DNA of 64,000 bases from Scenedesmus sp. PABB004. Taxonomy: Eukaryota. The notes beneath the pieces were generated by a model that ran no database searches, was not told where the DNA came from, and saw only the letters and a list, made by a program, of their open reading frames with translations. The stretch lies in NCBI GenBank assembly GCA_014905635.1, contig JABVCE010000021.1, forward strand, positions 310,001 through 374,000. The letters are read 5' to 3'. Below, in pieces: positions 4,018 to 63,810 of this stretch (position 1 is the stretch's first letter; each line of letters starts with the position of its first letter). Made by a program: the position numbers and the translations under genes.

Positions 4018-5027
4018 ATGCGCAGCGGAGCAGGCGCCAGCACCGCTGCCGCTGCTCGCACGCCGCGCGCCGGCGGCATGGCGCTGCGGCGGCTGGGCGG
4101 GCCGCCCGGCCGGATGCAGCAGCTGGTGAGCCTGGTGCCGGGGTCTGGCCGGGCGCCGTGCAGCTGCGCCGCCGCCGCCCGCCACGCTGAGCTGCCGCCC
4201 GCCGCCCAGGCCTCCGGCGCCGTGCGGCCCTGGCGCGGCCCTGTGGCGCCGCCCGCGGCCGCCGTGCGCGCCGCCAGCGCCGCCAGCGGCGCCCGCGGGC
4301 GCGCCGGGCGTGGCGCGGCGCCGGGCGAGGGCGCGGGCGGCGGGGGCGCGGGCGGCGCGCGTGGCAAGGCGCTGATGATCGTGGAGTCGCCGACCAAAGC
4401 CACCAAGATCCAGAAGTTCCTCGGCAGCGACTACAAGGCGCGCGGGGAGGGGAGGCGATAGGGCGGCGGGCCACGGGCAGCCAGCAGCTGCGGCACCGCT
4501 CTGGCCGCGAGCCGCCGCCGCCGCCGCGACGCGGCTGCCTGCAGGTCGTCGCCAGCTACGGCCACGTGCGCGACCTGGCCAACCGGGCGGGGTCGGTCAA
4601 GCCGGAGCAGGGTGCGCGCCAGGGGCGAGCGGGGCGCGCGCGCCGCCGGGGCCCCGCCCCGCCCGCGCCGCCGACCTGCCGACGGGACTGCCGCCTCCGC
4701 GGCCGCCCGCGCCGCCGCCAGACTTTGAGATGGTGTGGCAGGTCACGGGCGGCGGCGAGGCACGGCTGCGCGACGTCGCGGCCGCGGTGGGCGGCGCGGC
4801 GCGGCTGGTGCTCGCGACCGACCCCGACCGCGAGGGCGAGGCGATCAGCTGGCACATCCTGGAGGAGCTCAAGGTGGGCGGGCCAGCGCTGCTGACAGGC
4901 GGGCCGGCCGGCGGGCCAACGGGGCGGCAGGCGCAGTCGCTGGCAGGTCGGCTGGTCGGCAAGCCGCCGTGGGTGACGTCCGAGCTCGCCGCCACGGCCG
5001 CCGCCACGGCCGCCGCCGCGCCGCCGC

Positions 5028-5058
<31 letters not shown>

Positions 5059-5820
5059 GCGCGCAGCGCCGCGGCGTGCTGCCGCGCCCCGGCCTGGAGG
5101 CGCAGCGCGTGACGTTCACCGAGGTCACGCAGCGCGCCGTGCAGGAGGCGCTCGCCGCGCCGCGCGAGGTGCGCGCGGGCCGTGGCGCCGCGCGCCGCAC
5201 ACTGCGCGGCTCCTGCTGCGCCGCTCCGCCGCCGCCCGGCACCCCGCCCCCGTTTCCTGATCAATCAATCGACGGCTCCGTTGGCCCAGGTGTCGGCCCC
5301 GCTGGTGGATGCCTACCGCGCCCGCCGCGCGCTCGACTACCTGGTGGGGTTCAGCCTCTCGCCCCTGCTCTGGCGCCGCCTCGGGCCCGGCGCGCGCTCC
5401 GCGGGTGCGGGCGCGCGCCGGGCCGGCCCTGCGCGCCGGCGCGGCCGGCGGCGCCGGCAGCGCTTCCGCCCGCCGCGGCGCCCCGACCCGGTCCCCGCGC
5501 GCGCGCCGGCGGCCGCGCCCCCGCGCGCGCAGGGCGCGTGCAGAGCGTGGCGCTGCGCCTGGTGTGCGACCGCGAGGCGGAGGTGCAGCTGTTTGTGCCG
5601 CAGGAGCACTGGAGCATCGGCGCCAACTTTGCGACCGACCCCGGCGCCGCGGCGGCGTTCGCGGCGTCGACCGATGCCGCGGCGCCCGAGGGCGCCGCGG
5701 CAGGCCTGCTGCCGGCGCGGCTCACGGCGGTCGACGGGCGGCGCCTGGCGCCGATGGCGCTGCGCAGCGCGGCCGAGGCCGCCGCGCTCGAGGCGCGGCT
5801 GTGGCAGCAGGAGCTGCAGC

Positions 5821-5853
<33 letters not shown>

Positions 5854-8800
5854 CGCAGGGGGCGCGCGCGCCGGTGCCGTACCGCGTGCTGAGCGTGGTG
5901 CGGCGCCCCGTGCGGCGGCACCCGCCCGCGCCGTACGTGACGTCGACGCTGCAGCAGGACGCCGCGGCGCGGCTGGGCTTCAGCGCGAGCCGCACCATGC
6001 AGGTCGCGCAGCAGCTGTACGAGGGCGCCAACGCCGGTGCGCGCGCGCCGCGCCGAATCGCCGCACGCGGCGCTGCCCGCGGCCCGCGTGCCGGCCCCCC
6101 GCGCGGGCGCTCGGACACGGGCGCCTCGAGCGCACCCCAAACACTCGACCCAACAAACAACAACATCGCCCGCCCGCCGCCGCGCCAGGCGAGGGCCTGA
6201 TCACCTACATGCGCACTGACGGCGTGAACGTCAGCGCAGAGGCGGCGGCCGCGCTGCGCGCCGCGGTCGCCGCGCGCTTCGGCGACGCCTTTGTGCCGCC
6301 GGGCGGGCCGCGCGCGTACAAGAGCCGCGCCAAGAACGCGCAGGAGGCGCACGAGGCGATCCGGCCGACCGACCCGACGCTCACGCCCGACGCCGCCGCG
6401 GCGCAGCTCACGCCCGAGCAGGTGCGCGCGGCGCCGCTGGCTGGGCCTGCGCCGCCGCGCGTGGCGCGTGGCGCGGCCGCCGCGCTGCGCACTCACGCCA
6501 CACGCACTCACACACACGCGCGCGCTCCGCCGCAGGCCAAGCTGTACCGCCTGGTGTGGTGCCGCGCGCTGGCGAGCCAGATGGAGAGCGCGACGCTGGA
6601 CCAGGTGCGGCGGGCCGGTCAGCTCGGTCAGCTCGAGGGAGCGTGCACGCCGCGGCGTGCGTCGGGGCGGCCGGCGCAGGCGCGGCGCCCACGCGCCGCG
6701 CGCCGCAGGTGACCGCGGAGCTGGGCAGCCCCTGCGGCGGGCTGGTGCTGCGCAGCAGCGGCAGCAGCCTGTCCTTCCCTGGCTTCCTCGCCGCCTGGGA
6801 GGGCGCGCCCGGCGGCGCAGGGCTGCTCGCCGCGGCCGCCAGGCTGGCCGGCGCTGGCGGGGACGGCGAGCCCGCCGGCGCCGGCGCCGAGTCGGACGCC
6901 GAGCCGGACGGCGCTGGGCTGAGCCCGCTGCTGGCGGGGCTGCGCGAGGGCAGGAGGTGCTGCTCATGCAGGCGCGTGGCGCGGGCGCGCCGCCGCGCCG
7001 CCGCGGCGCCGGCCGCCGCGCAGCGCGCGCCGCGGTGCCGCGCCGCCCGTGGGCCAACCGCGCCCCGACGCCGCGCGTGGCGCGCAGGTGCTGCCGCGGC
7101 AGCACTGGACCAAGCCGCCGCCGCGCTTCACCGAGGCGTCCATGGTCAAGACCCTGGAGGAGGCAGGTGTGGGGCGGCCGAGCACCTACGCACCCATCAT
7201 CCGCCTGCTGCAGGCGCGGCGCAGCGCCGGCCGCCGCGCGTGCACGCGCGTGTGCGCGGGCGCGCTGCTCCGCCGCCTCGGGGCCCGGCGAGCGGGCGAG
7301 CCGGCGAGCTCACGCCGCGGGCGCGCCGCACGCCGCGCAGGAGCGCGGCTATGTGACCAAGGCCGGCCGCGCGCTGGTGCCGACGCCGCTGGGGCGGCTG
7401 CTGTCGGCGTACCTGGCCGCCCACTTCGCCGAGTACGTGGACACTGACTTCACTGCGCGCGTGGAGGAGCAGCTCGACGTCGTCTCCGGTGCGCGGGGCC
7501 ACAGGCGCAGGCGGCGCCGCGGCCGCGACGCGCGCGCTGTGCACGAGCCCGCGGGCTGCTGGTCGCCGCTGACGCCCGCGGCGCGCGCGCAGCCGGCGGG
7601 CTGCCGTGGAAGCGCCTGCTGGCCGACTTTTGTGCGCCCCTGGACGCGGCGGTCGGCACGGCAGCACAGCTGAGCACCACCGAGGTGTTTGACCAGCTGG
7701 AGGCGCAGCTGGCGCACCTCATCTTCGCGCCACCCCTGCAGCCGCCGGGGGGCGCCGGCGAGGCCGGCGCGGAGGCGGGCGCGCGCACCGAGGCCGGCGC
7801 GCCGGCGCACGACCCGCGCGTGTGCCCCGTGTGCGGGGGGCGGCTTGTGCTCAAGCCCAGCCGCGTGACGGGCGGGTTTGTGGGCTGCAGGTGCGGCCGG
7901 CGCCGCCACGCCCACCGCGCCCGCTGCGCCGGCCGCGCCCGCCGCGCCCGCCGCGCCCGCCGCGCCCGCCGACGCCCGCCGCGCCCGCCGACGCCCGCCG
8001 CGCCCGCCGACGCCCGCGCGCGCCGCCGCCGCCCGCGCCGCAGCAACCACGACTCGCTTGGCTGCACCTTTGGCCGCCCGCTGTGGCCGGACGCCGCCGA
8101 GGCGGCGCAGCTGTCGGATGAGGAGGGGCAGGTCGCGGCGGCGGCGGCGGGCGCGGGCGGCGCGCTGGGCGCCGCGCGGCTGCTCGGGCGCCACCCTGAC
8201 AGCGGCGAGGCCGTGTGGCTCAAGCGGGGCCCGTACGGCCTCTACGTCCAGCTGGTGCGCTGCGCCGCAAGCAGCAGCAGAAGGCGCCGCAGCGGCGCGC
8301 AGGCCCCGCGCTGACGCGCCGCGCGGCGCCGCGCCCGCCGCAGGGCGACGGCGCCGCCGCCCTGGCTGCGGCGGCGGCGGCTGCTGCGGCGTCGGGCGGC
8401 GCGCCGGGCGCCGCGCCGGCGCGGCGCGGCAAGCCGGCCAGGCCGCCGCCGCCGCCGCGGTCGGCGGTGCCGCAGGGCACGGCCTGGGGCAGCGTCACGC
8501 TGGCCGACGCGCTGCAGCTGCTCGCGCTCCCGCGCACGGTGCGCGCCGCCGTCGCCGTGCTCTTGCGCCCGCCCCTGGCCGCGCGGGCAGCCCGCGGCGT
8601 CGAGCGCCGCCGCGCCCCATGAGCCCCGGCCGCCGCCCCGCCGCGTGCGCAGCTGGGCACGCACCCCGAGAGCGGCGAGCCCGTGACGGCGAGCGTGGGG
8701 CGCTTCGGTCCCTTCCTGCGTCACCGCGGGCTCTCGGTGGGCCTGCCCAAGGGCGCGGCGCTGATGGAGGTGGGCCTGGCGGAGGCGGTCGCCGCACTCG

Positions 8801-10160: not shown

Positions 10161-12970
10161 CTAGTACTTGCTCGGGTGTGCCTGCAAGGGGTGTGCGAGC
10201 GCGGCGCAGCGGGCGGCGCGTCGGCGTGATGCGTGGCGCGGCGCGGCGCGTCGCCCGGAGCGCTGCCGCCCCTGCCGCGGCGGGCCCACCCACACCTCGT
10301 CGTAGTCAACAAACCGCATGCGCTGGGCCATGCGCGCCGCCCAGCGCCGCAGCGCCGCGGCGGCCGCCGCGCCCCCCGCGAGCGCGGCCGCGGCCGCGCC
10401 AAAGCCGGCCGTGCCGAGCGCGGCCGCCGCGCCGAGCGCGGCCGCGGTGCCGAGCGCGAGCGCGGCCGCCGCGAGCACGGCCGCCGCGGCGCCCGCGGCG
10501 GCGGCGAGGCGCTCCAGGTTGGCCAGCGCGCCGCGGCAGGCGGGGCAGTGCTGCGTGTGGCTGGCGTAACGGTCAAGCACCGCCTCGCGCGGCAGCGCGC
10601 CCGCCGGCGGCGCTGCGGGCGGCGGCGGCGCGGGGCACGGAGGACCGGCGTCGGCGCCGACCGCGGTGCCAGCGGCGGGCGCGCGCGGGCCGCGGGCCGC
10701 GCGCGCACCCACGCCGGCGGCCAGCATCTCGTCGTCGGGCGTGGCGCCGCCGGCAAACCGGCGCACCCACTTGCTCAACGCAATTGGCCCCTGCGCGCCG
10801 GCAGGTGGGCCCGCGCGGCGGCGGCGGACGAGTGTGTGGGACCGAGCGTGCACCGGCCGCGCGGGCGGGCGGGGCGAGGCGCACAGCGCACAGTGCGCGA
10901 GCGCCGCGCCGCGCCTGGTCCACGCCCACGGCGGGCATGTTGCCCTGGCCTGCGCCCTTGGCGCGGTTGGCGTCCACGCCGTGCTGCATGCACAGGTCGG
11001 CGTCCACCACGTCGTGCCTGCGGGGTCAGAAGGGGCGCGCAGGTCGGAGGGGCGAGCCACCGCCGGCCGCGCGCGGCCGCGCCGCGGCCGCCGCACATCG
11101 CCACGTGGTTGAGCCACTCCGGCGTCGCTGGCAGCACCGCGAGCAGCGCGCGCGTCGCGGCGCCGGCGAGCGCGGGCAGGCCCCACCGCGGCGGCGGCGC
11201 GGCCGCGGCCGCGGCGGCCGCGGCGGCGGCGGTCGCGGCGGGGTCTGCGACAATGGCGATCATCATCACGCAACGCCCGGGGCGGTCGGCGTGACGTAGC
11301 CCACGCCTGCCCCGGCGCGCGGGTCGCCTGCGCGCGCCGCAGGAGGCAGGGGGAGGAGGGAGGGGCAGCGCGGGCGGCGCGTCGGCGCGGGCAGCGCGGC
11401 GGTGAAGCGCGGGCGCGGCGGCGCGGCGCGGACCCGCAAAGTTGCGCCGAATGCCGCCAGGCATGACGCAGACGTCTGTCACGACGCGCCGCGTCGCGTG
11501 GTTGAGCCTGCCGCGGGGGCGGCGGCCGCGGCGGCGGCGGCGTGCGCGCGCGTCGCGGACGCCCTGCCGAGCCGGGCAGGCGCCGCGCGGGCCGCGAGAG
11601 CGCGGGACGGGGTGAGAGCAAGAACAACAGTGCGCGCCGCGCGCTCACCGGCTGACCGTGTAGCCGGCTGCGTCCATCGAGAACGCCTGCACCTCGCCCG
11701 GCGCCGCGGCGGCGCGGCTGAGCCCGCCCACGCCGTGGTGCAGCACCGTGTCGTGGCTCGGGTCTGCGCGCCGCGGCGGCGGCGCGCGCGCTGTGGGCCC
11801 CGCCGCCGCGCGCGCGCCTGCGCGGCCGCCGGCCTCCTGCCCCCACCCACACCCACCCACCCACCCTCCCCCGCCCACACCCACCCACCCACCCTCCCCC
11901 ACACCCACCCACCCACCCTCCCCCACCCACACCCACCCACCCACCCTCCCCCACACCCACCCACCCACCGTTGAAGACGTTCTCTTTGACCACCAGGTAC
12001 GACGCGGCGCAGTGCCGCAGGTACCAGCGCCCCAGGTGCGTGCCGCGCTCAAAGCCGAGCTTGGTGCTCCAGAAGGCAGCGGGCCCAAGCTCGTCGAGCT
12101 CGGGCGCGACGGTCGGCAGCGCCGTCGCCGCGGCGCGCGCCGCCGCGGCCGGCCCCGGCTCGCCCCACACCCACAGCAGCTCCTCGGCCACCGCCGTCGC
12201 GTGCGCCGCCGCGCACGCGCGGCGCCCCGGCGGCGGCGCGCCGGGCGGGAGCTGGGGGATGCTCGCGCACGCGCCGGCGCCGTCAAACTGCCAGCCGTGG
12301 CTGCGGGCGCGAGAAGCGGCGGGCGCGCCAGCAGTGGGGGCTCACAGGTAGGGGGCGGGGTCGCGCGCGTGCAGGCTGCGCGGCCGGCAGCCGCCACGCC
12401 CCGCGGCGCGGCGCGCTCACTAGTTGCAGAACAGGTTCCCCGACGCCGGCTCGATGCGGCCCTCGCTCAGGGGCGCGAGGCGGTGCGGGCAAGCGTCGAC
12501 GAACGCCCTGCGCGATCGGCAGCGGCGGGCCGGCCGTCGGCGGCGTCGGCGGCGCAACCAGCGCAACCGTCGCAACCAGCGCAACCACCGCAACCGCCGC
12601 CGCACCTCCACTGCCCGTCCTTGTCGCACCACACGACCAGGTCCTGGCCGAGCAGCTTCACGGCCTGCGGCCTGCCCCGGTCGAGCAGCGCCAGCGGCGA
12701 AACGGGCCACCACTGCGCGCGCCAGGACCACGGCGCCGCGCCGCCGCCGGGCGCCGCGCTCGGCGCCTCAGCGGGCGCCGCGACACCCGCAGCCTCAGCG
12801 AACGGCGCCTGCTGCGGCGTGGCGCGCCAGGCGGCCACGCCGGCGCTGGGGCGCCCCGCGGCGCGGCGCGGGCCCGCCGGCGCTGCTGACGCGCGCCGCC
12901 GCAGAGCGAGCGCCGGGCGGCCGACCGGGCTGCACGCGGCCGTCCCCTGGCGCGCCACGAGCGGCGCCAT
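10161..12970 (-). CDS. Pheophorbide a oxygenase (PAO/TIC55/PTC52) family Rieske non-heme iron oxygenase
   Basis: Rieske motif DACPHRLAPLSEG...FCNY|HGWQFDG, mononuclear iron site ENVFD|PSHDTVLHH, C-terminal LDRYASHTQHCPAC followed by a hydrophobic tail, and a transit-peptide-like N-terminus. Confidence 0.88.
11845..11968. repeat. CCCA/CCCACA-type degenerate simple repeat in a PAO-family intron
   Basis: Seen directly: runs of ccacccacccaccctccccc units. Confidence 0.85.
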
Positions 12971-16200: not shown

Positions 16201-18466
16201 GCCACTTGAACAGACGGCTGCTCGGGCTGCTGCCGGCGCCGTCGCCGCCGTCGCCGCCGGGCGCGGGCGCCAGGGACATGCCTGCGACGCTGCTGGCGAT
16301 GGTGGTGCCTTGGCGCCACAGCAGCGGCTCGCGGCCCTCCCAGCCGGCGAGGCCAAAGCCGGGCGGCGCAGCGTCCAGGGCGCCGTGCCCGCCCAGGCTG
16401 CCGCGCCGACTTTGCACAGGGGGGCTCAGCGAGCCCCGAGCGCCAGCTTCCGCGTGGCCGCCGGCTGGAGAGTCAGCGGGCGGCGGGCTGCCCTCGGGCT
16501 GCGCCGCACGCGGCCGGGTGGCTGCCGGCGCTGCCGCGCTGATGCTGCTGGCGGCGCTGCCGGCGCTGCTGTGGGTGCTGTTGCAGCGGCCGAGGTCGTC
16601 CGCCTGCTGCGCCGCCGCCGCCGGCGCCGGCTGCCTGGCCGCTGCCGGCGCGAGCGGCGAGCCGCCGAGTGCGGGCTGCTGCTGCTGCTGCTGCTGTTGC
16701 TGGTGTGCAGCCCAGCCGCCAAACGACGACGCGAGCGCCCCGCCTTCGTCAAAGTGCAGGGCGGGCGATGAGAAGCTCATCGCTAAGCTCGGGTTCAGCA
16801 GGCGCTGCTGCGTCTGCTGCTGCTGCCAGGGCGCAGCGAGGGGCTGGTGCTGCTGCGCCGCCCACAGCTGCTGCTGCTGCTGCTGCTGCTGGTACGGCGT
16901 CCAGGGCAGCGTGCCGTCTGACATGGCGCTGCTGTGGCTGCCCGCGAGGCTCACGCGCGCCGGCGTGCCGCCGCCGTGCGGCGCGCCGCCGAAGCTGCTG
17001 CTCCTGCGGTGCGCCCGGCCGGCACTGCCGGGCGTGGGCGCGCCGCCGAGCTGCTGCGCCAGCGCGCCCGGCGGCGCAGCGCCTGGCGGCTGCGCCGCTG
17101 GCTGCGGCAGCAGGCTGCTGAGCACGAGCTTGAGCAGCTCTGCGATGCAGAACCACCACCAGCGCAGCTGCCCCCTCCCCCAGCGCCGAAGCCGACGGAG
17201 CTGGTGCTGCAGCGGGCTGCTGCTGCGCGCCGGTGCGCCGCCGGGCGGCCGCTTTCGCGCTGGACGCGTGCCGGCGGGCGAGCGCGCCTCAGCGGCGGCG
17301 GGGCTGAGGCTGGCCGCGCCGGCTGCTGCGGCGCCGCCCCTGCCGCCCCGCGCGCCGGCCGCCGCGCCGCGCGGCCCAGCGGCGGCCGCTGCCGGCGCTG
17401 CTGCTGCTGCTGCTCCGCCTGCTGCGCGCCGTCCGCCGCAGTCGCAGCGGGGCGGCGCTGCCGCAGCACCTGCTGCGGCGACCGCTCGCCCCCGGCTCGC
17501 GCCTCTGGCGCGACGCCGTCGCCATCCGACGCCCCGCCGGCGCCAGTGTCTGCCTCGTCCGAGCTGCCGCTGCAGCTCCCCGCCGCCGCGCCGCGGGCCG
17601 GCCTCGCCCGCCGCTGCCTGTCCGGCGACGCCTGCGGGGCGGCGCGCCGGCGTGCGCGCGCGGCCCGTCTGCGGCGCCGCGCGCCGGCAGCGCGCGCGGC
17701 GCTCCCGCGCCACGCCGCCGCGTCGCAGCGCGCGCACCTGCTGCTTGGCCTGCAGCTCGCCGTACTTGGCCGCCAGCTCGTCCCGCACCTCTTCGAACAG
17801 CTGCCACGCGATCACGGCCGGGAGGAAAACCAGCTTGGCCACGCACACCGGGAAGGAGCTGCGCCGCGGCCGGCGGGCGGCCGGGGCCCGTCGGCGCGTG
17901 CGCCCCGGCGCGAGCGCTGCGCCCCGGCGCGAGCGCTGCGCCGCAGCGGCGCAGCACGGCGCGGCGGCGCGCAGCCCGTGGCGGCGCGGCGCGGCCAGGG
18001 GGGGGGGGCGTGCCTGGCGTGCAGCTCGCGGCGCGCGGTGTCCACGAGGTAGCGCTTGATGTCGCGCAGCGACAGCGAGCAGAAGTAGCCCCACAGCAGC
18101 GGCTCCTGGAAGTCCGCGAGAACACTCCAGCAAGCCCACGCCAGGAGCAGCACCGCGACCTGCGGCGAGACAGCGCGCGCGGCGGCCGCCCGCGTCAGCC
18201 GTCGGCGCCGCCCAGGGCGCCGCCCAGGGCGGGCTGCCATGGTGTGTATCGCCGTCGGCTCCGCCCAGGGCGGGCTGCCGTGGCGTGGATCGCCGCGGCG
18301 CGGGCGTGGGGTCGCCGCCAGCGCCCGCGGCGGCGCGCGGCGGCGCGCGGCGGCGCACCGCGAGCAGGTGCCCGCCGGCCGTCAGCGCGATGCTGACGTA
18401 CGGGCTGCTGCTGCGCACGAAGTGGCCGACGCCGCCCGGGCTGCCCGGGTGCCAGGAGTCGGGCAT
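13286..18466 (-). CDS. TMEM245-like / AI-2E-family multi-pass membrane protein
   Basis: N-terminal LLLAWACWSVLADFQEPLLWGYFCSLSLR; C-terminal GVFVSSLKLAAFHAGVSWL and LGVFGGMASF...GALLGPTLLALL. Long Q/A/G-rich insertions and a coiled-coil region. About 7 introns. Confidence 0.75.
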
Positions 18467-28968: not shown

Positions 28969-29823
28969 ATGCAGCAGCTCCAGCTCCAGCAGCGGCGCCC
29001 GCTGCGCGCCGCGCCCCAGGCCGGCGGCAGCAGGTGCGGGACGGTTCCGCGAGCGCTGGGGTGTGCGCAGCCGCCGGCGCCCTCACGCGCTGCTGCCGGG
29101 CGCCGCGATGCGCAGGTCTCGGCCGCTGCGGCTGGCCTGCGCAGCCTCCGCGCAGGCCACCAAGTGCGTGGGCGGGGAGGGCGGGGCCCGCGCGATGCAT
29201 GGGCGCCGGCGCGGCCCCACGGCGGCGCTGCGCGGCGGCGCGCGGCGGCTGTTGCCGCCGGCGGCGGGGGTTGCTGCTGCCGCGCCGCCGCTGCTGGGCG
29301 TTGAGTGAGCGCGTCCCTGCCGCGGTCCACAGGCCCAAGGTGAACATCAACTGGGACAACCTCGGCTTCGGCCTGCAGGATGTCGCGCAGGTGCGAGCCG
29401 GCGGCGGCGGCGGCGGCGCGGCGGCGCCCCGCCCGCGCCCAGCCCCGGCCGCCGGCGCCGCGCGCAGACGATGTACGTGACGGAGTGGACCGAGGGCAAG
29501 GGCTGGGACAAGGGCGCGCTGAAGCCGTACGGTCCGCTGCAGATGATGCCGAGCGCGCAGGTGGGCCGCGGCGGCAGCGGCGGCAGCAGCGGCGGCGGCG
29601 GCGACGGCCGGCTCGGCCCGGGCGGCGCGGCAGCGCCCGGGGCGGCAGCGCGCGCGCGCGACGCCGCGCCGTGCCGGCGTGGCCGCAGGTGCTCAACTAC
29701 GGGCAGTCTGTGTTTGAGGGCATGAAGGCCCAGCGCACCGCCAGCGGCGACATCGTGCTCTTCAGGCGCGGCGGCCGGCGGCCGGCGGCGCGGCGCGGCG
29801 CGGCGCGGCGGCGGGCAGCAGCG

Positions 29824-29862
<39 letters not shown>

Positions 29863-31246: not shown

Positions 31247-31329
31247 GCCGCCCGCGGGGGGCGACGCGCGGCCCGGGCGGGCGCGCGGGCAGGCGGGGCA
31301 GCGTCACGTGGCGCGGCGGCGGGCACCGC

Positions 31330-32519: not shown

Positions 32520-32592
<73 letters not shown>

Positions 32593-33237
32593 GGCGGCGG
32601 CGGCGGCGCGGCGCTCGCGCCCGAGGCGCGCGCGGCGCTGCTCGCGGCGGCCGAGGCGGCCAAGGTCGCGCTCAGCGACGCGCCCGAGGCGGCGGTGCCG
32701 CTCGCGCCGCCCGCCGCGGCCGCACTGGCGGGCGGCGCCGGCGGCGCGGCCGCCGGCGGGCAGCCGGCGCAGCTGCGCCTCACGCGCCCGCAGCTGCACG
32801 CCGCGACCGCGGCGCTGCGGGAGCGGCTGTGGGCGCCGCTGGCCGCCGTCGCGGACGACTGCAAGCTCGCGTTTGAGTGCGAGCCGGGCAGCATCGAAGC
32901 GCGCCTGGCAGCGGCGGACGGGGGCAGCCAACGCCGCGGCGGCGGCGGCGGCCACGGCAGCGGCGCCGGCCAAGGCGCGCCCGCCGACCCCTACGCGCCC
33001 AAGCCGCGCAAGCTGAGCGCGGTGCTGCTCGTCGGCGGCGCTACGCGCATGCCCATCCTGCAGGCGGGCCTCGCGCAGCTCACGGGCCTGGCGCCGCGGT
33101 GCGAGGTCGACCCCGAGCAGGCCGTCGCGCTGGGCGCGGCGATTCAGGCGGCGGTGCTGCTGGGGCTCACCAGCGGCATTGAGGTCATGGACGGCAGCTA
33201 CGTCCAAGGCCAGCACGCGCGCGCGACCGGGTTTTGA
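31476..33237 (+). CDS. Atypical Hsp70/DnaK family protein (ATPase domain only), putative plastid
   Basis: [90 protein letters not shown]. The stop comes about 20 aa after the linker. 2 introns; frameshift near 32605. Confidence 0.88.
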
Positions 33238-49806: not shown

Positions 49807-49844
<38 letters not shown>

Positions 49845-52800
49845 TGACGACGAGGCGGCCGCCACTGCCGCGGACGCGTTTGCGGCCAAGGGCATGCTGG
49901 AGCTGCTCGGCGCGAGCGGCGCGCTCACGCGGGAGCCGCCGCCGCCGCCGTCCGCCGCCGACGCGCTCGACGCGACGCTAGCAGGCGCCGCCGGCGCGGC
50001 GGCCGCGGCGGGCCTGCCCGGCGGCGGCTGGGCGGCGGCGGTGGAGGACGTCGTGGCGACCGCCCGGCCGCCCGGGGGCGGCGCGGGCGAGGAGCAGCAG
50101 AACAGTGCGTGCAGCACGCCGGGCTTGGCCGGCGCGAGCCGTACGGCGCTGCGCCCGCTCAACGGCCCGCCCCGCCGCGCCGCGCGGCGCCGCCGCAGAG
50201 GAGGTGCTGCGGCGCGTGCGCGCCGACAAGCAGCTCGTGGCCAACACGCTCGCGGCGGTGCAGGCCAAGCTGCGCGCGGGGCAGCGCACCGCCGACCGCG
50301 GGCGCTTCCGGCGCTCCGCAGGTGACGCGCGGCGCCGGTGCGCCGTGCGGGCCGCCGAGGGGCTGAGCCTGCCGCTCACAGCGCGCTGCTCGCCCGCGCC
50401 GCGCAGACGTGCCCGTGCGGCAGTATCAGCCGGTCGCGCACGACGACGACCTGTTCTTGCCCACGCGCCCGCTCGGCAGCGCCAAGGCGCGGCGCCGCCG
50501 CCGCTGCACGCGCGCGCTCGCCGCCGCGACCGCGCCGCCGTCGCCGCGGTCGGCGCGGCCCGCGCGCGCCGCGCCGACGCGCCGCGCCGCGCCGCAGGTC
50601 GCGGCGCTGCTCGCGGACGGCGCGCGCGTGCGGGCGGTCGACCCGGACAAGGTCGTGCGCCAGGCGGTGGCCATCGCCGAGGCGGGCAAGCGTGCGGCGG
50701 CGGCGTCAGCGGCCGCGGGCGGCATCGGCATCGGCGCCGCGGAGTGCACCGAGTGGAGCAGCATGCCGCTGCTCGACCGCAGCATCCTGCACAAGCAGCG
50801 CCTGGCTGAGGCGGCCGAGCGGCTCGCGGCCAAGCCCAAGCGGCAGCAGTGCGCGCGCGGCGCGCGGCGCCGCTGGCGGTGCGCGCGGCCCCCGACCGAC
50901 CGCGCCCGGCTGCGCCCGGCCGCGCCGCAGGCCCTGGACCCTGCTGCCGCTGGACGAATACACCTTCAAACTGGAGGTGCGCACGCCCTCACCGCCGCCA
51001 GCGCGCGCGCGCCGACGCCCGCGCCCCGTCCCGCGCCCCATCCCGCACCCGCGCGCCCACGGCCGCCAACGCCGCGCCGCGCCGCCGCCCGCGTCGCCGC
51101 GCAGGTGCGGCCGCCCACGCCGAGCCTGGACCTCGTCACGGCCTACCTGGAGGTGCGCTACGCCGACATGCTGCTGCGCAGGGACGCGGTGCGCACGCTG
51201 CACCGCCAGCTTGCGGCGCAGCGCCTCGCCGACGGCGGCGCCGCGGCGAGCGAGGCGGCCGAGTCCCCGCCGGCCGCGCTGTCGGCGGCGCGGCTGCTAA
51301 GCGCGGCGGAGCGCGAGGGGATCACGGCGCGCCTCGACGCGCTGCTGGGCGGCGGGGCGCACGACGAGTACCGCAGCGCGGCCCTGCAGCTCTATTGCGA
51401 CGGCCTCATCGCGTGGGGCGAGCTCCAGGAGTGCTGGGCGGCTGCCGAGGCAGCGGAGGAGCTCGCGGCGGCCGCTGCGGCGCCGCCCGCGTTTGCGGGT
51501 GCGCGCCCGGGCCGCGCCGCGCGCCCGCGGCCCGCGGCCGCCCCGAGGAGCGACGTGCCTTCGCGCTGACGCCCGCCGCCGCCGCCGCCGCCCTCCGCGA
51601 CGCAGCCGACCGCGCGCAGCTGTTCGCCGTACTCAGCGGGCAGCGGCAGCTCGGCAGCCTCACGGCCGCCAACCCGGCGGCGCCGGCGGGCCTGGCGCTG
51701 AGCGCGGCGGACGAGGCGGCCGCGCGCAAGCTGTGGGACGGGGCCGGCGCGACGCTCGCGGGCGCGTGGGCCGACGCGGCGCGCGCGGCGCACGAGGCCG
51801 ACGGCGCCGGCGGCAGGGACGCGTGGGGCCAGCCCGTCAGCTTTGACGAGGCCCGCCGCACGTGGCAGCAGCTGCTGCAGCTCGCGGGCCAGCCGGACGG
51901 CCTGCGCCTGGAGCAGGTGCTGCTGGCGGGCGGCGGCACCGCCTCAGAGCAGGCCGCGCTGCAGGCGCGGCTCGGCAAGCTTCAGGCCGCGCTCGCGGAG
52001 CGCACCGGCCTGGGCGGCGCGGGCGCGCTCGCGGCGGACGACTTTGCGCAGCTGCGCGAGCTCTGCGCCGCGCCGCCGAGCCTGGAGGAGCACCTCGAGC
52101 AGCACCTGGCGCGGGTCGCACGCGAGGAGCTGGGCGCCGAGCCCGCGTGGGAGGGCCCCGCGTGGCAGCGGCTGTGGCAGCTCGTCGCCGCGCTCACGCG
52201 CGCGCAGAAGGAGGAGGCTGCGGCCGGCGGCGGCCGCGGCGGCGCCGCCCCCGGCGTCGACGCCGCCGCGCTGCTGGACCAGGCCCTGCAGGAGGCGGAG
52301 GTGTCGCCGCTCACGCCACCGCCCTACCCGGGTGCGCTGCGCCGCGCTGCGGAGCGCTGCGCCGGCCCTGCTTGTGCGGCGCCCCCGCCGCGCCGCCGGC
52401 CGCGCCGCAACCCCTGCTGCCCCCTCCCCTGTTGCCGGCCGTGCAGGCGCGCGGCGGCTGCTGCGCTGGGAGCAGCGCATCGTGCTGGGCCCGACGAGCG
52501 GGCAGACCGTCACGTCTGCGGAGCTCAAGGTCAGGCTGCGCGTGAGCGCCGCCGAGCTCGCGGCCGAGGCGGGCCTGAGCGCGCCGGCGCTGCAGCGCGT
52601 GCTGGAGGTCGCCGGCAAGCGGTGAGCGGCGCGGGCGTGGGCAAGCGCGCGGGGCGCCGCGGCGCGATCGCCGCTGAATCGGCGGCACTGCGCGCGCGCT
52701 CACGGCCGCCCGCGCGCCCGCGCGCAGGTACGACCCAGCGTCGGGCCTGCTCACGCTCGTCTGCGACCGCTTCCCCACGCGCGAGGAGAACCGCAGCTTC

Positions 52801-53331: not shown

Positions 53332-56293
53332 ATGAGCCGGCGCACGACGCTGGCGCCGCTGGCGCCGCTCAGTCCCAACGCGCTGAACTCGCGCCAGAGC
53401 CTGGCGCCGGGCAAGGAGGGCCTGCGCAAGGACGGCGGCGGCGGCGCCGGGGGCGTCGGCATCGCCGGCCCCCCCGGCCGCCCCAGCCTCAAGCCCGGCG
53501 CGGGACGGCCCAGCGTGGTGCCGCGCCCCGGCGAGCGGGCGAGCGGCATGGGCCCGGACCGGCGCAGCAGCGCGTTTGGCAAGGCCGGCGGCGGCGTGAA
53601 GGCCGACCCGCGCCCGCTGAACGACAAGAACTTCTTCAACGGCTGCATCCGCACCATCATCGCCTACGCCTCCACGCACGGCTACCCGTACGCGCTCAGC
53701 CCCAAGGTCCTCACCAGCCCCACGGGCAAGGACTTTGCGCAGCTCGCGTTCTGGCTCTTCACCCGCTTCGACCCCACGCTCAAGGCCTTTGGCAAGGTCG
53801 AGGACGAGGTCCCCCTCTTCTTCAAGCGCATCGCGTACCCCTTCCAGCTCTCCAAGAGCGCGCTCTTCGCCGTCGGGTCGCCGCACTCCTGGCCCAGCGT
53901 GCTCGCCGCGCTCGAGTGGCTCGTCGAGCTGCTCAACTATGACGACAAGGCGGTGCGCCCGCTTGCCGCCGCCGCCGCCGCCGCCACAGTCGCCACAGTC
54001 GCGGGGCATGTGCTGCCTGCGGCGCGCAGGCAGCACGCCCGCGCGCCCGCACCGGCGCGCCCGCGCCGCTGCCGCCGCCGCCGCGCAGGAGGAGGCGGCG
54101 GGCAGCCAGTTTGATGAGAAGGCGCGCAGCGAGCGCCAGTTCTTTGTCTACGCCTCGACCGCGTACCGCTACTTCCTGGCCGGCGACGACGCGCGCGCCG
54201 CCGCGGCGGACGAGGAGATGCTCGGCCAGTTCCGCGAGCGCCAGGCCGCGCTGCTCGACAGCAACGCGGCGCTCAAGCAGGCGCGGCGGCGGCGGCGGCG
54301 GCAGGCCGGCGGCGACGGCCACCCCGACGGCCCTGCAGCGCGCGGTGCGCGCGGCTCACGCCCGCCCGCCCTTGCACGCGTGCCGCGCCGCGCAGGCCAT
54401 CGACGGCCTCGCGTCCGAGGTCGACGAGCTGCGCCGCCAGCCGTCGCCGCTCGCGGCCGCGACGGCGGCCAAGCAGGAGGTGCTGGGCGACCAGCGCAAG
54501 TTCAAGGAGGTCATCGCCGGCAACCAGGTGAGCCTGCGGCCGCGCCACGGCGGGAGCGGCCGGCGCGGCCCTCGCCGCCCTCGCCTCGTCCACGTGCTCA
54601 CCAGCGCTGCCCGCCCGCCCGCGCCGCGCGCGCAGGCGCAGCGCGCGAGCCTGCAGAAGAAGCTGGAGGAGCGCCAGGCGGACCTGGAGGCCAAGCGCGC
54701 CGCGCTCGCGGCCGTGCGCGCGGGTGCGGCGGCGGCGCCCGGCAGCGCAGGCGCCCCGGCATGCCCCCGCCGCCCCTGCATGCCCCCGCCGCCCCTGCAT
54801 GCCCCCCGCCGCCGCTGCCGCCCGACTCCCGCCGCCTGCGCCGACCCCCTCCGGCAGACAACGAGGGCCTCGCGGCGCGCGTGGCGGGGCAGAGCCTCAG
54901 CAAAGCAGACGTCAACCGCATGGTGGCGGAGAGGTGCGGCCGCGGCGCTGCGCTCCCTCCTGGCGGCCAGCCGCGGCTGCGGCGGCGGCGGCGGCGGCAG
55001 TGCGCGCGCTGACCGCGGCGGTGGCCCGACGCCGCCGGCGGGCGCAGGTCGAAGCAGAAGGGCCTGCTGGAGGGCGTCGTCGCGCAGCGCGAGTCGCTGC
55101 AGCAGCGCCTCTACCAGGCGGAGGTGCAGGTGAGGCACACAGGGCGGCGGCTCAGGGCCGCTTGTCCTCCCCCCCCCCCTGCCTGGCCGTGCCAGGGCGC
55201 GCCGCGCCCGCCGCCGCCGGCGCTCGCTCACCGCGGCACCGCGCCGCCCGCGCGTCAGCTGGAGTCGTGCCTGAACGGCCTGGAGGAGCGGCTGCGCCAG
55301 TACCACAGCGCCTGCCACCGCCTGGGCCTGCTGCCCGCGAGCGCCAAGCGCGCGGGCGGCGTGAGCTACGACATGGCGCTGCACCGCGCCGCCGCCAGCC
55401 AGGCGGAGCTCATCAGCGGCGACATCAAGGCGCGGCGCCGGCGCGGCGCCGGCGCGGCGCAGCGCGCGGCAGGCGGCACGCGCAGGGCAAGCGTGGGTGG
55501 GCGCCGACCCCGTCGCCGCGCCCGCCCCCGCGCCGTCGCCGCCGCTCTCGCCGCGCAGGGCGTGATCCGGCCGGGGCTGCTGTCGCTGCGCGAGCGCTAC
55601 CGCCTGCGCGGCCGCGAGCTCGCGGAGGACGGGCTGGTGCTGGCGGAGCAGCTGGACGCGGCGCGCGAGGCCAACGCGGAGCGGCAGGAGGAGCTCGCCA
55701 GCCTGCGCCGCCAGGTGGGTAGGGGGGCCCCGCACCGCGCGGCCAGCCGCCGCAGCCGCCCGCGCAGCCCGCGCTGCCTGGCCCCGCGAGCACCGCGCCC
55801 GCCGCGCGCCAGGTGTCTGTCGCGGAGGAGCGCCACCGCGGGCTGAAGGAGGCGCTGGACGTCGACATCGCCTCGATCGGGGGCCACGCCGAGAAGATCA
55901 AGGGCGAGGTCTCGTGCCTGCGCAACGCGATGCTCTCGCGCCTGCTCGACGCCGAGGAGCGCCTGCGCGGCGCCAAGGCGGAGCTCGAGGCGGCGCAGAA
56001 GTGCGGCGGCGGCGGCGCGTGCCGGGGGGCTCGCGCCGGGGGGCTCGCGCCGGGGGGCTCGCGGCGGCGCCGCGCATGCGCGCGCGCTCACGCTGCCGCG
56101 CCGCGCCGCTCGCGCGCGCGCCGCCCCCAGGCGCTGCGCGGCAGAGGTGGAGGAGCTCGACCACGCGGTCATGGCGGCGGCGGAGCTGCTGCTGCAGCAC
56201 GCGGCGAGCATGCGCGCGGGCGTGCAGGACGTCGCCAGCGCGGTCGGCGGCATCGCGCACGAGGTGCAGGCGGCGGAGCAGGCCGTGTGCTGA
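53332..56293 (+). CDS. NDC80: Kinetochore protein NDC80/HEC1
   Basis: DPRPLNDKNF, LTSPTGKDF, FKRIAYPFQLSKSALFAVGSPHSWPSVLAALEWLVEL (NDC80 CH domain), followed by coiled-coil exons and a loop region (DIK|GVIRPGL). Confidence 0.93.
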
Positions 56294-56546: not shown

Positions 56547-57809
56547 ATGCACGCCCTGCGCAGCCGCGGCGCCACCAAGCTCAGCACCGCCCAGGCCGCG
56601 GCGCCGCTCTTCCGCGCCGCGCACCTTCCCCGCGCCGCCAAGCCGGCTGCGCAGCGAAGGTGGGGCCCGGCGGCGGCGGCGCGGCCGCAGCAGCGGCGTG
56701 TGTGGTCGGCGCGGCGGCGGGGCCCGCGAGCGCAGGCCCGGGCGCTCGCGTGGCGCTGAAGCCCCGCCCTCACGCAATGCGCCCCGGCCGCCCTCGCAGG
56801 AGCATGTCGTGCGCCGCGGGCGGCGCGGCGGCGTCGGCCGCGCTGCTCGACCGCGTGCGCGGCGCGCTGTGGGGTGCGTGCGCACGCGGCGCGGCCCCCG
56901 CGCGGCCGCCGCCTCGCCGCACGCACCGCACTGCGCAGGCGGCCCCGCCGCGCGCTGCGGCGGGCGCAAGCAAACGCACGGGGCGCCGCCCAACTCACGC
57001 CCACGCTCACGCTCCGGTGCTGGCCCGCCGCCGCTGGCTCACGCTCCAGCGCTGCCCCCCCCCCCCCCCCGCTGCTCGCCCTCCTCGCAGGCATCTTCAT
57101 CGCCGACGCGCTGTCCATGCCGGTGCACTGGTACTACGACACCGCGGCGCTGCGGCGCGACTTTGGCGAGATCACAGACTACCAGGTGCGGCGCACCGGC
57201 GGTGCAGCAGCAGGCGGGCGTTGCTTTGCGCAGCAGCGGCGGTGCACAGCAGCAGGCGAACGTTGCTTTGCGCGGCAGCGACGGTGCAGCAGCAGGAGGG
57301 CGGGACAGCGCGCGGCGCCCGGCGCGGCGGCCGCGGCGGCGCCCCAGGACCGCCGCCGCGCACGCGCGCCGCGGCGCCGCGGGCTGCACGCAGGCGCCCA
57401 AGGCGAAGCACCCGTCGAGCATCATGTCGCTCTCAAACACGGGCGGCCACGGCCGCGGCGGCCAGGGCGGGCGCATCATCGGTGCGCGCGGCGCGCGCGC
57501 CGCCGCCGCCGCGCCCGCGCCGCCGCCGCCGGCGTGAGCACCGCGCTCGACGCCGCGCCGGCGCCGCGCTCACGCCCCGCCGCCGCGCGCCCGCGCCGCC
57601 GCGGCTGGCCAGGCGACGTAATCAACCACGGCAAGCACCAGTACTGGGGCGTCCCCAACATGCACTACCACCAGGCGCGCCGCCGCCGCCGCCGCCGCCG
57701 CCGCTGCGCGCGCGCTCTGCGCTCTGCGCTCCCTCGATTGCCCGCTGCCGCGTCACCCCCCCCCCCACACACACACACACACACACACGCCCACACACGC
57801 CCACACACG

Positions 57810-57867
<58 letters not shown>

Positions 57868-58722
57868 CACACTCGCCCACACACGCGGCCACACACGCCC
57901 ACGCGCAGGGCATGGCGGCGGGCGAGAACACGCTCAACGCCCTCTGCGCGCGCGTCGTCATGCGCAGCATTGCGGCCGGCGGCGGCACGTGCGCGCGCGA
58001 CCGCCGCGCGCCCGCCCGCACGCGCGGCAGCGCGAGCGCGCCGTGCCGACCGCCGCGCTGCCCGTGTTGTTGCTGCCGGGCCGCGCGCAGGTACAGCGCG
58101 GCCTCCTTCCTGCAAGCCTACGTCGACTTTATGACCACGCCCGGCAGCCACAACGACACATACGCCGAGAGCTTCCACCGCGACTTTTTCAAAAACTGGG
58201 CCGCCGGCGTGCCGCCCGAGCGCTGCGCGCTGGTGCGCGGCGGCGGCGGCGCGCGCGCGCCGGGCCGGGCCGGGCCGCCGGCGGCGGCGGCAAGCCCGTC
58301 CGCGCGCCGTCCGCGCCGCGCGCCGCCGCTCACGCCGGCGCTCGCGCCGACACCGCCGCGCCGCAGGGCACCGAGGGCCACAACACCGCGCAGATTGGCG
58401 GCTTTGTGATGCTGCCGCCGGTCATCATGGCCGCGGTCGCCGCCGCCGCGGCGAGCGGCGCGGAGCCCGACTCGGTCGCCGCCGCGGCGGCGGCGGCCGC
58501 CGTCGAGCACCTGGGGACCACGCACGACTCGCGCAAGCTCGCGGCGGCGGCGGAGCGCTACGCCCAGATGATGGCCCGCCTCGCGCTCGTGCGCGCCGCG
58601 CCGCGCCGCGCCGCGCCGCGCCGCGCCGCGCCGCGCCGCCGCCAGGCCCCCCGCGCCCGCCGCGCGCCGCTCCCCGCGCGTCGCGCGCGCGCGCGCGCCT
58701 GCCCATGCCGCCCACGCGCCCG

Positions 58723-58753
<31 letters not shown>

Positions 58754-61931: not shown

Positions 61932-61969
<38 letters not shown>

Positions 61970-63810
61970 GCGGCGGCGGAGCTGGAGGGCCCGCTGGACC
62001 TGTCCTTCACGCCGCCGGTGCCAGAGACCTACGCCGAGCTCGTGGCGCTCGTGGGCGGCCGGCCGGCGGAGCAGCTGGCGCTCGCGATCAAGCGCGTGCG
62101 CAGCTTCAACGCCGCCGCGCTCGCGGCCGACAACAAGCGCAAGCTGCAGGCGCGACCCGCGTCGCGCGTCCGGCGCCGCGCCGCACGTCCGTCTCCGCCG
62201 CGCGTCGCCGCTCACCGCTGCGCCGGCGCCGCCGCGGCCGCCGGCATTGCCGCCAGGTCTTCTACGGCCTGCTGGTGCAGCACTTTGCGGCGCTCGCCGG
62301 CGAGCGCCCGACGCCGGCGGCGCACCTCGACGCGCTCACGGTCGCGCTGCTGTCGCTGACGCCGGAGGTGCCGTTTTACGCCGCGACCGTCGCGCGCACG
62401 CGGCTCGAGCGCCTGCACGACCGCCTTGCCGCCGCGCTGTCCGACCCGCTGGCGGCGGGGCCGCTGCTCGGCTGGCCCGGGCCGCGCGGCGTCGCGCAGC
62501 TGCGCCTCTTCGCTGTGCTCTTCCCCACGAGCGACAAGCGGCACCCCGTGACGACGCCGCTCGCGCTGCTGCTGGGCAAGTGCCTCGCGCAGTGCCCCGT
62601 GGCGCGGCCGTACCACGCCGCGCTGGGGCTGCTGCTCGCCGGCATGGCGCTGCACAACGCGGCCGCCGCGCCGCGCTTCGTGCCCGAGGCCAACGCCTTT
62701 GTCGCGGCGGCGCTGCGCGCGTTTGTGCCCGCGCCGCCGCCCGGCGGCAAGGCCGCGCCGGCCGCACGCGGCGGCGCCGAGCGCGACGCGGGCGCGGGCC
62801 TGTTCGCGCCGGGCGTGCTCGCGCTCAGCTGCTGCGGCGCCGGCGCCGGCAGCGCCGCGGGCGGCGGCAAGCGCAGGAAGCAGCAGCAGCTGGGCGGCGG
62901 CGGCGAGCAGCAGGCGCTGCCGACGCTCAACCTGCATCGCCTGCTCTCCAGCGAGCCGGACGCCGAGGAGCTCAGCAGCGACGCGTTCAAGCTGCAGCTG
63001 CTGGGCTGCGCGGTCGCGACCGCGACCCGCATCGCCGAGCTCAGCGGCGGCGTTGGCGACGCCGCGCCCGAGGTGCTCACGCCGCTGGCGGCGGCCGCCG
63101 CGGCGGCGGCGGGCGTGTGCGGGCTGCCGCCCGCGGCGGCCGCCGCGCTCGCCGCGCTGCGCGCGCGGCTGGCGGCCGCGGCCGACGCCGTGGCGGCGGC
63201 GCGCGCGCCGATGGTGCAATCGCACAGGTGGGGCGCGGCGCCGGCGCGCCCCGCCCCGCCCGCCTGCCTGCCTGCCCCGGCCACACGCACGCACGCGCGC
63301 ACGCGCGCACTCACGCCCCGCTCACCCACCAACACACCAACCCGCCCGCCCGCCCTCGCGCGCAGGGTCAAGCTCGTGGCGCCGCGTGAGTTCAACCCGC
63401 GGTATGAGGCGGACTTCAGCGCGCACGCCGACTACGACCCCGACCGCACGCGCGCGGCGGCGCGCAAGCTGCAGCGCCAGCTCGTCAAGGAGCGGCGCGG
63501 CGCGATGCGCGAGCTGCGGCGCGACGGCGCCTTCATGGCCGCGGTGCGGCGCCGCGGCGCGGCGCGGCGCGGCAGCACGGCGCGCGGCGCGCGGCCCGGC
63601 GCGGCGCCTCGGCGGCGGCGGCGCCGCTGCTCACGCGCCGCCGGCGCCGCCGCCACCGGCTTGCAGGAGCGCGACGCCGAGAAGGCGGCGGTCAACGCGG
63701 AGCGGCTCGCGAGCGAGCGCGCGTTCTACAGCGAGCTGCAGGTGCAGGAGGCGGACGCGAAGAGCGGCGGCCAGCGCGGCATGAACCCGCACCGCAAGAA
63801 GAAGAAGTGA
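59557..63810 (+). CDS. NOP14: Nucleolar protein 14 (SSU processome)
   Basis: NPFE...KFDVLGR, RKKTLLVEY...KANTFIDRRFG, LTHGGRSL, KSKKE|VMAEIIAKSK, YDRAARELVFE, ERTLT.EE, FPTSDKRHPVTTP, FVPEA, FNPRYE, KERRGAMRELRRD. Confidence 0.95.

Follow-up and report, generated by a model that had tools for sequence, protein, structure and literature searches.

Context-restricted excess of GC-AG introns in a GC-rich 64-kb window of Scenedesmus sp. PABB004

Why should introns that begin with GC be so frequent in one stretch of DNA, and why should they lie only behind particular exon ends? These questions are raised by a 64-kb window, the whole stretch of DNA analysed here, which covers positions 310,001 to 374,000 of contig JABVCE010000021.1 of Scenedesmus sp. 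PABB004. A first-pass annotation had listed 17 firm and two tentative introns with GC donors in this window. All 19 listed intervals were found to start with GC, to end with AG and to follow an exonic AG, and 11 of the 17 firm ones were fixed to the exact base by homology. These 11 alone account for 8.0% of the 137 introns predicted in the window (95% confidence interval 4-14%), a lower bound that is already above the plant norm of 1.2%; the share of GC-AG introns in the window is likely 12-14%. The intervals are probably ordinary U2-type GC-AG introns in which a change from T to C at position +2 became fixed, driven by GC pressure, at junctions whose exon side pairs well. All counts come from this single window.

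The DNA is very rich in G and C. Its G+C content is 80% overall and 75-82% in each 4-kb bin, with 95% at third codon positions, 86% in intron interiors and 76.5% outside gene models; C/(C+T) within intron interiors is 0.87. A G+C content of 65%, that of the haptophyte Emiliania huxleyi, was ranked in 2014 among the highest of sequenced eukaryotes (PMC4028052, in the excerpt drawn on here), and the window stands well above it; to our knowledge it is by far the most GC-rich nuclear DNA described. The window is occupied by intron-rich eukaryotic genes. One exon of its branched-chain aminotransferase (BCAT) gene has 94% identity to green-algal proteins, with named matches from Coccomyxa, Chlamydomonas, Haematococcus, Chlorella and other chlorophytes, and over 355 residues the spliced BCAT product has 85% identity to the transcriptome-derived protein P0125. 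From its sequence, the window is taken to be nuclear and to come from a green alga of the core chlorophytes.

The junctions of the 19 listed intervals follow the pattern (C/A)AG^GC(G/A)(C/A)G...AG, where ^ marks the exon-intron boundary. Position -3 of the 17 firm donors is C in 14 and A in three, and positions +3 to +5 are GCG in 15 and ACG in two. The strict AG^GC(G/A)CG donor described in the first-pass annotation holds for all 17 firm introns and breaks at tentative donor 25342, which has GAG at +3 to +5 and thus reads GCGAG. The introns are listed below with their junctions and the evidence for each.

4438..4544, plus strand: GC-AG intron in TopA (bacterial-type topoisomerase I), AAG^GCGCGC; homologue profile
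6972..7087, plus strand: probable GC-AG intron in TopA, CAG^GCGCGT; holds only with a 1-nt indel around 6948-6950
7214..7340, plus strand: GC-AG intron in TopA, CAG^GCGCGG; homologue profile
10791..10914, minus strand: putative GC-AG intron in a Rieske-type (PAO-like) oxygenase gene, CAG^GCGCGG; ab initio only
17859..18013, minus strand: putative GC-AG intron in a gene called TMEM245 by the first-pass annotation, CAG^GCACGC; ab initio only
20326..20434, plus strand: GC-AG intron in an RmlD-like reductase gene, CAG^GCGCGC; homologue profile
20567..20674, plus strand: GC-AG intron in the RmlD-like gene at the ancient STDQ^VYDG position, CAG^GCGCGG; homologue profile
20790..20916, plus strand: GC-AG intron in the RmlD-like gene, CAG^GCGCGG; homologue profile
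21055..21177, plus strand: GC-AG intron in the RmlD-like gene, CAG^GCGCGC; homologue profile
25342..25416, plus strand: tentative GC-AG intron in an unnamed gene, CAG^GCGAGG, 75 nt, in frame; ab initio only
29766..29898, plus strand: GC-AG intron in BCAT, CAG^GCGCGG; homologue profile
30298..30451, plus strand: GC-AG intron in BCAT, AAG^GCGCGC; homologue profile
39452..39568, minus strand: GC-AG intron in 7-hydroxymethyl chlorophyll a reductase (HCAR), CAG^GCGCGT; 5dqr_A alignment
40634..40790, minus strand: GC-AG intron in HCAR, CAG^GCACGG; 5dqr_A alignment
50487..50597, plus strand: tentative GC-AG intron in an unnamed gene, AAG^GCGCGG, 111 nt, in frame; ab initio only
54281..54395, plus strand: putative GC-AG intron in NDC80, in a coiled-coil region, CAG^GCGCGG; ab initio only
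55430..55558, plus strand: putative GC-AG intron in NDC80, AAG^GCGCGG; ab initio only
57675..57908, plus strand: putative GC-AG intron in an ADP-ribosylglycohydrolase (ARH) gene, CAG^GCGCGC; ab initio only
62150..62256, plus strand: GC-AG intron in NOP14, CAG^GCGCGA; Pfam Nop14 profile

Ends of the form GC...AG prove little by themselves, because AGGCGCG is common in the window (96 copies on both strands, about one per 1,300 nt per strand) and introns cannot be told by stop codons, which are too scarce. A match at the exact base demanded by homology has a chance of about 0.1% per site. In the junction test, each GT or GC donor was combined with each AG acceptor within 75 nt under an open frame, and the variants were spliced in silico and scored against homologue profiles of TopA, BCAT and the RmlD-like protein. 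Homologues for the profiles were recovered by searching with single exons or with read-through translations; one 45-residue RmlD exon as query returned two fragments only, and a read-through query to a representative library was used instead. As a control, the junction of the gene model came out on top in five of six BCAT introns with GT donors, and the sixth sits in the unconserved N-terminus. At all eight GC junctions tested, the claimed site ranked first, 10.8-36.5 bits above the best GT alternative, and homologue alignments had no gap at any of them. Three further junctions (two in HCAR, one in NOP14) are residue-contiguous in PDB or Pfam coordinates. The 11 introns fixed in these two ways are TopA 4438 and 7214; RmlD-like 20326, 20567, 20790 and 21055; BCAT 29766 and 30298; HCAR 39452 and 40634; and NOP14 62150.

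In TopA, the 4438-4544 intron was the first of 35 variants, 36.5 bits over the best GT; it is without any internal GT, and its junction aligns gapless to homologue P0002 across DYK^VVASYGH. The 7214 junction was the first of 62 variants, 17.0 bits over the best GT, and is likewise gapless to P0002. For the RmlD-like gene, 20326 was the first of 76 variants (35.7 bits over the best GT, gapless across AALSQ^PAACE), 20790 the first of 81 (10.8 bits) and 21055 the first of 62 (16.1 bits over the best GT and 18.0 bits over retention). When 21055-21177 is read through, homologues match as two stretches and skip residues 47-86. With an N placed at 20697, the 20567 junction was the first of 109 variants, 18.5 bits better than the best GT and 18.9 bits better than retention. 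The exon downstream of 20674 has to be corrected by 1 nt near 20697 (+38.5 bits); the GC donor at 20567 is chosen with or without this change. For the third RmlD intron the ab initio model took an acceptor at 20706, which gave way to 20674 of the first-pass annotation; relatives show VYDG coded there. In BCAT, 29766 was the first of 80 variants (32.6 bits over the best GT) and 30298 the first of 46 (12.0 bits). P0125, the relative's transcript-derived protein, is gapless across both junctions, and P0124 across that at 30298, where a GC-AG variant shifted by 2 nt nearly ties (-0.4 bits).

The HCAR junctions were checked against the solved Arabidopsis enzyme, chain 5dqr_A. The read-through of 39452-39568 aligns to residues 316-344 and then 345-401 of this chain, with exactly the 39 residues coded by the interval omitted; at 40634-40790, residue 187 ends the upstream exon and residue 188 opens the downstream one. 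The NOP14 junction was checked against the coordinates of the Pfam Nop14 profile: the last residue of the exon upstream of 62150-62256 is position 482 and the second residue of the downstream exon is position 484.

The TopA intron at 6972-7087 has fared less simply. In the assembly as it stands, its junction does not keep the frame of the exon before it. With an N at 6948-6950, the GC model listed in the first-pass annotation does outscore its competitors: it beats an in-frame GT model, 6957-7023, by 8.3 bits and the best GT alternative by only 5.2 bits. The segment restored by this splice was compared with GQKIQLLQVHPAQH in the closest homologue, P0002. Apparent 1-nt deletions break the frames in GGG runs at 6948-6950 (TopA) and 20695-20697 (RmlD-like), and an N at the break raises the profile score by 8.3 and 38.5 bits, respectively. 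Both are probably homopolymer assembly errors, and real frameshifts are less likely.

Five firm and both tentative introns are supported by the ab initio model alone, namely PAO-like 10791, 17859, NDC80 54281 and 55430, ARH 57675 and tentative 25342 and 50487. The parser took its first codon usage from TopA matches and was then retrained on the genes it predicted, and GC donors were penalised as 1% of donors. A ban on GC donors costs the genes of these seven introns 4.4-29.4 nats beyond that prior, and the seven interiors score as non-coding between coding flanks. PAO-like 10791-10914 was picked under the 1% prior, and the GT-only parse of its gene is 7.0 nats worse; in NDC80 the loss is 29.4 nats for both GC donors jointly, and for ARH 57675-57908 it is 4.7 nats, with a coding density of -0.52 inside versus +0.25 and +0.27 in the flanks. 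The corresponding losses are 4.6 nats for 25342-25416 and 4.4 nats for 50487-50597. The former has a length that is a multiple of three and is stop-free, and either of these tentative intervals may be retained as coding sequence.

Domain matches support some of the gene identities. The Pfam Rieske domain extends over PAO-like exons 12608-12970, 12423-12506 and 11970-12299 (profile positions 1-36, 38-62 and 65-83), the first NDC80 exon matches Pfam Ndc80_HEC (E = 1.6e-38), and the exon upstream of 55430 matches NDC80_loop weakly. An exon-by-exon Pfam scan of 57 exons at E<=0.05, which is insensitive for short exons, fixed the NOP14 junction and partly one HCAR junction and nothing else. A scan of 11 exons at E<=10 gave nothing usable for PAO, TMEM245, NDC80 or ARH, and the TMEM245 identity of the gene at 17859-18013 was left unconfirmed by Pfam exon scans with 0 matches. 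In the PDB, translations that read through the ARH and NDC80 introns matched low-complexity sequence only, and neither Pfam nor PDB yielded anything for the seven introns with ab initio support.

How large is the excess? Under the 1% prior, the gene parse gives 137 introns, 115 with GT and 22 with GC donors. The 22 comprise 16 of the 17 firm introns, both tentative ones and four calls that do not follow AG. These four, at 9420-9505 (+), 32606-32655 (+), 28395-28678 (-) and 14270-14348 (-), lie in unverified regions and were discounted. A ban on GC donors costs 175 nats: the four RmlD introns collapse into one 496-nt intron that skips three conserved exons, and the GT-only parse also cuts into conserved BCAT, HCAR and TopA sequence. 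With all firm introns the GC share is 17/137 (12.4%), and with the tentative ones it is 19/137 (13.9%); GT donors make up 86-92%. In plants, GC-AG introns are about 1.2% of the total (PMC6310983, in the part of the source available), against which the 11, 17 and 19 introns give p = 1e-6, 1e-12 and 7e-15, respectively. The excess described in the first-pass annotation (17-19 among roughly 135 introns) is borne out, at 8-14% against 1.2%. Its baseline of about 1% is apt for plants; for GC-rich algae, values of 14-56% GC donors have been published (PMC4815162; PMC4028052; bioRxiv 10.1101/2024.10.30.620910; as excerpted).

The GC donors obey a rule of context. An exonic AG precedes 17/17 of the claimed GC donors versus 52/115 GT donors (Fisher p = 6.5e-6), as had been proposed from the sequence at the outset, and the rule holds for the 11 verified donors alone (p = 6e-4). 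The fuller (C/A)AG precedes 17/17 claimed GC donors versus 37/115 GT donors (Fisher p = 4e-8), a comparison in which ascertainment bias is possible for the six unverified donors. Most GT donors read GTGCG (79/115), again as first described. Positions +3 to +5 of the GC donors match this GT consensus of the organism, and the two sets therefore belong to the same class of intron. Elsewhere, in animals and plants, the GC-donor consensus is AG^GCAAGT; that of the window is (C/A)AG^GC(G/A)CG. The introns resemble known GC-AG introns in their GC...AG ends, in a donor that is otherwise GT-like and in a stronger flanking consensus. U12-type (minor) introns have AT-AC or GT-AG ends and a conserved donor box that contains ATCC. 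No such box was seen in the GC donors, which fit the major-type consensus; a U12-type identity was ruled out, the donors reading GC(G/A)CG.

Behind AG, 52 donors are GT and 16 are GC (16/68, 24%), and outside this context 0/63 are GC; in the context AG^GY(G/A)CG, 35 are GT and 16 are GC (31%). C at +2 still looks selected against, because only 24-31% of the donors in permissive contexts are GC. The first-pass proposal that +2 T had become C "wherever" exon-side pairing compensates was too broad on this count (16 of 68), and its core, GC pressure combined with exon-side compensation, agrees with the composition of introns and third codon positions and with the restriction of GC donors to (C/A)AG. 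By a crude equilibrium inference, the scaled cost of C at +2 would be about 3 behind AG and much larger elsewhere. The motif AGGTGCG serves as a donor in 35 cases and is unused in sense exons in five, and 36 of the 96 copies of AGGCGCG lie unused in sense exons. Most unused copies of AGGC(G/A)CG in sense exons are explained by position -3, because 27 of the 39 have G there (GAG^, from Glu-Ala codon pairs); the other 12 have (C/A)AG^.

Are GT donors found at the same positions in relatives? Such a comparison with lower-GC relatives, suggested in the first-pass annotation, came out in its favour: GT occupies two RmlD-like positions where the window has GC. A metagenome scan with a seven-sequence RmlD-family alignment gave 46 loci, and junctions were refined in 15 of them (47-70% G+C); a 19-sequence alignment was too diverse as a search query, and a scan with P0122 as query found no relative. 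The STDQ^VYDG intron (window 20567) lies at the same codon boundary in eight of the 15 loci. Its donor is CAG^GT in five (L041, L028, L034, L046 and L007) and CAG^GCAT in three closely similar contigs of about 50% G+C (L010 4103-4396, L012 4103-4397 and L016 4103-4398). Two of these three offer no GT alternative, and the related contig L007 has CAG^GTAT there; a GT/GC switch at this site has thus recurred in the absence of GC pressure. The closest relative, L044 (70% G+C), has CAG^GTGGGG at the position and phase of window 21055 (DEF(R)^). The relatives with GT at the two orthologous positions have 49-70% G+C. Donors of this gene are normally GT, because 31 of 35 well-aligned junctions in relatives are GT (score at least 100; three GC and one tied; 48 refined in all; hand count), and 20567 and 21055 sit at old positions where GT is usual. 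No intron was seen at window positions 20326 and 20790 among the 15 loci. Proteins P0121 and P0122 (WPGRH/YPNKY) cross the 20790-20916 site uninterrupted, and P0244 crosses that of 21055-21177; they are from relatives without these introns or are transcript-derived records. The presence or absence of introns in the RmlD-like gene seems to vary among close relatives.

How could such donors arise? T at +2 accounts for a single base pair with U1 snRNA, and GC-AG introns with a strong flanking consensus are spliced elsewhere by the standard machinery. GC 5' splice sites are stated to need compensatory signals (PMC3167603, in excerpt). In the window, extreme GC-biased substitution pressure would push unconstrained T to C; unconstrained T is taken to become mostly C because C/(C+T) in introns is 0.87. 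A C at +2 would cost an unmodified U1 snRNA one base pair, a loss that would be tolerated only with full pairing elsewhere, that is, exonic (C/A)AG, G at +1, G or A at +3 and G at +5. In this permissive context T to C would be fixed at about a quarter to a third of donors, and it would be purged elsewhere. The outcome would be GC-AG introns at 8% (verified) to 12-14% (likely). On this account the intervals are presumably removed from the RNA of this organism, for which the transcript-derived P0125, gapless at both BCAT junctions, gives indirect support. Their GC donors would be recognised by an unmodified U1, and the +2 substitutions would have run from T to C, with GC pressure as their cause.

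Other explanations have been weighed against this one. A lineage-specific change in the machinery, by which the 5' end of U1 snRNA, U1C or U6 accepts C at +2, is rather unlikely; the first-pass annotation had raised it as a possibility for U1 snRNA and U1C. It could draw on a GC-donor share about ten times the plant norm (PMC6310983, as excerpted) and on a GTGCG/GCGCG consensus that departs from the textbook GTAAGT at +3 and +4. Against it, GT donors still make up 84-88%, GC donors occur only with the full exon-side consensus, and an orthologous GC donor is also present in a lineage of about 50% G+C; the dependence on context fits an unmodified U1 that loses one pair and does not fit a U1 that pairs with C, and therefore an altered U1 or U1C is not needed. 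An Rfam scan of the 64-kb window at gathering thresholds gave 0 matches, with no snRNA gene there. A related and wider proposal is that regular, non-repetitive introns sit at a mutation-selection balance at +2, with C only behind (C/A)AG, or that U1, U1C or U6 has been altered to accept C. We regard this as doubtful; if it were true, the alga would be the first case of a core chlorophyte in which GC-AG introns exceed 10%, and would offer a natural titration of 5' splice-site recognition.

That the junctions are mis-called, with nearby GT donors real or the intervals coding, is very improbable overall and is refuted for the 11 homology-fixed introns: at eight junctions all GT alternatives within 75 nt, and in-frame retention, scored worse, three more junctions are residue-contiguous, and 4438-4544 has no GT to offer. 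What speaks for mis-calling is the abundance of AGGCGCG, unused copies in sense exons included, the five claimed introns of in-frame length that are stop-free in DNA where stops are rare, the seven of 19 introns with ab initio support alone, and the frame of 6972 as assembled. Consensus errors, in which a true T at +2 was miscalled as C, have an even smaller probability. The assembly does contain two apparent 1-nt deletions in G runs; the faults detected are indels, not substitutions, and 35 AG^GTGCG donors stand unaltered in like surroundings, which speaks against a context-specific T-to-C miscall. Random miscalls would not fall solely behind (C/A)AG, BCAT matches the relative's transcript product at 85% without scattered substitutions, and GC recurs at an orthologous site in three independent metagenome contigs. 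No more credible is pseudogene decay, with donors drifting from T to C under GC pressure. Decay would ignore exon context and would hit +1 and +5, and 17/17 donors keep (C/A)AG^G.(G/A)CG; homologues align over the full length with no gaps at the junctions, BCAT, HCAR and NOP14 are without frameshift, codon bias is intact (third positions as above), and the flanks have positive coding scores. The apparent frameshifts in TopA and the RmlD-like gene would be expected under decay, and at 80% G+C stops occur too seldom to reveal pseudogenes.

Fixation of T to C under GC pressure behind well-pairing exon ends thus remains the preferred reading, and several observations weigh against it. The motif is insufficient for donor use, as the 12 unused (C/A)AG^GC(G/A)CG sites in exons attest. 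The GC donor at STDQ^VYDG in three contigs of about 50% G+C implies that GC pressure is not required for any single switch; as read from these contigs, it shows that the CAG^ context can be permissive on its own. Six of the 17 firm introns are not homology-fixed, among them 6972, which needs a frameshift correction. The assembly is not error-free: about 4 kb of coding sequence was checked, and two 1-nt indels are probable in it. Finally, the genome-wide share of GC donors could differ from that of the window, because a single 64-kb window was analysed and the RmlD-like gene alone gives four of the 17 GC donors; GC donors begin four of its six introns (hypergeometric p = 0.002, uncorrected for the roughly 20 genes).

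GC-rich algae with a surplus of GC donors are already known, and this alga would be a further case. In the prasinophyte Micromonas pusilla CCMP1545, 25.6% of donors have been reported as GC (9.7% in regular introns), with 79% of the GC donors in repetitive introner elements; these donors are RNA-supported and were missed by GT-only gene predictors (PMC4815162). The window shares with it a green-algal origin, richness in G+C and an excess of GC donors, and differs in that its introns form no repeated family, in its core-chlorophyte affinity and in its much higher G+C content (80%). For Emiliania huxleyi, about 50% GC donors are cited by the Micromonas authors (PMC4815162), and 56% GC-AG was found among 241 hand-mapped junctions and ascribed to 65% G+C (PMC4028052). 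This haptophyte shares with the window the excess, canonical AG acceptors and an explanation by GC pressure; in the window, by contrast, GT is the majority and GC is confined to the best-pairing context, and the two organisms belong to different supergroups. In pelagophytes, GC donors reach ~14-17% in Aureococcus and ~14% in Pelagomonas, and only 0.32% in the lower-GC relative Aureoumbra, the excess being "likely attributable" to GC content (bioRxiv 10.1101/2024.10.30.620910). Their share nearly equals that of the window and the explanation is the same, and the Aureoumbra value parallels the GT found at orthologous positions in relatives of the window; they differ in being stramenopiles, in that the figures are predicted, not homology-verified, and in that no context rule is stated in the excerpt. 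In plants, GC-AG introns, the major non-canonical class of U2-type introns (PMC6310983), are about ten times less frequent than in the window (8% verified, 12-14% likely). All these comparisons follow the sources as excerpted. The literature searched did not describe a GC-AG excess in any core chlorophyte; the supplementary species tables of PMC6310983, outside the search, might list raised values.

For annotation the consequence is practical. A gene finder or aligner restricted to GT-AG mis-models about one intron in eight here, nine named genes in the window are affected, and annotation of this genome needs GC donors to be allowed. The window also provides a green-algal data point for the link between GC pressure and donor evolution proposed in haptophytes, prasinophytes and pelagophytes. 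To this it adds the context rule and two orthologous positions with GT in relatives, and it opens no new question.

Some minor features of the window deserve mention. On the minus strand at 10161-12970, the ab initio model gives two genes that are probably one Rieske-type oxygenase, and its two 45-nt introns, 12301-12345 and 12376-12420, seem questionable. A CA dinucleotide repeat lies inside the putative ARH intron 57675-57908 and reads THTHTH in frame. An all-against-all blastn comparison of the 137 introns gave only low-complexity GC-rich matches, bar the tandem GT introns at 46365-47264; an introner-element origin of the Micromonas type was rejected, as the GC-donor introns form no repeated family among the 137 compared. 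Within the gene at 42525-47951 (+), exon-plus-intron units are duplicated in tandem at 46120-47486. Introns 46365-46466 and 46758-46859 share 100% identity across 102 nt, as do 46575-46649 and 46968-47042 across 75 nt; additional copies stand at 94%, and all the duplicated introns have CAG^GT donors. The repeated exons of this region contribute many of the unused GAG^GCGCGCGCG sites.

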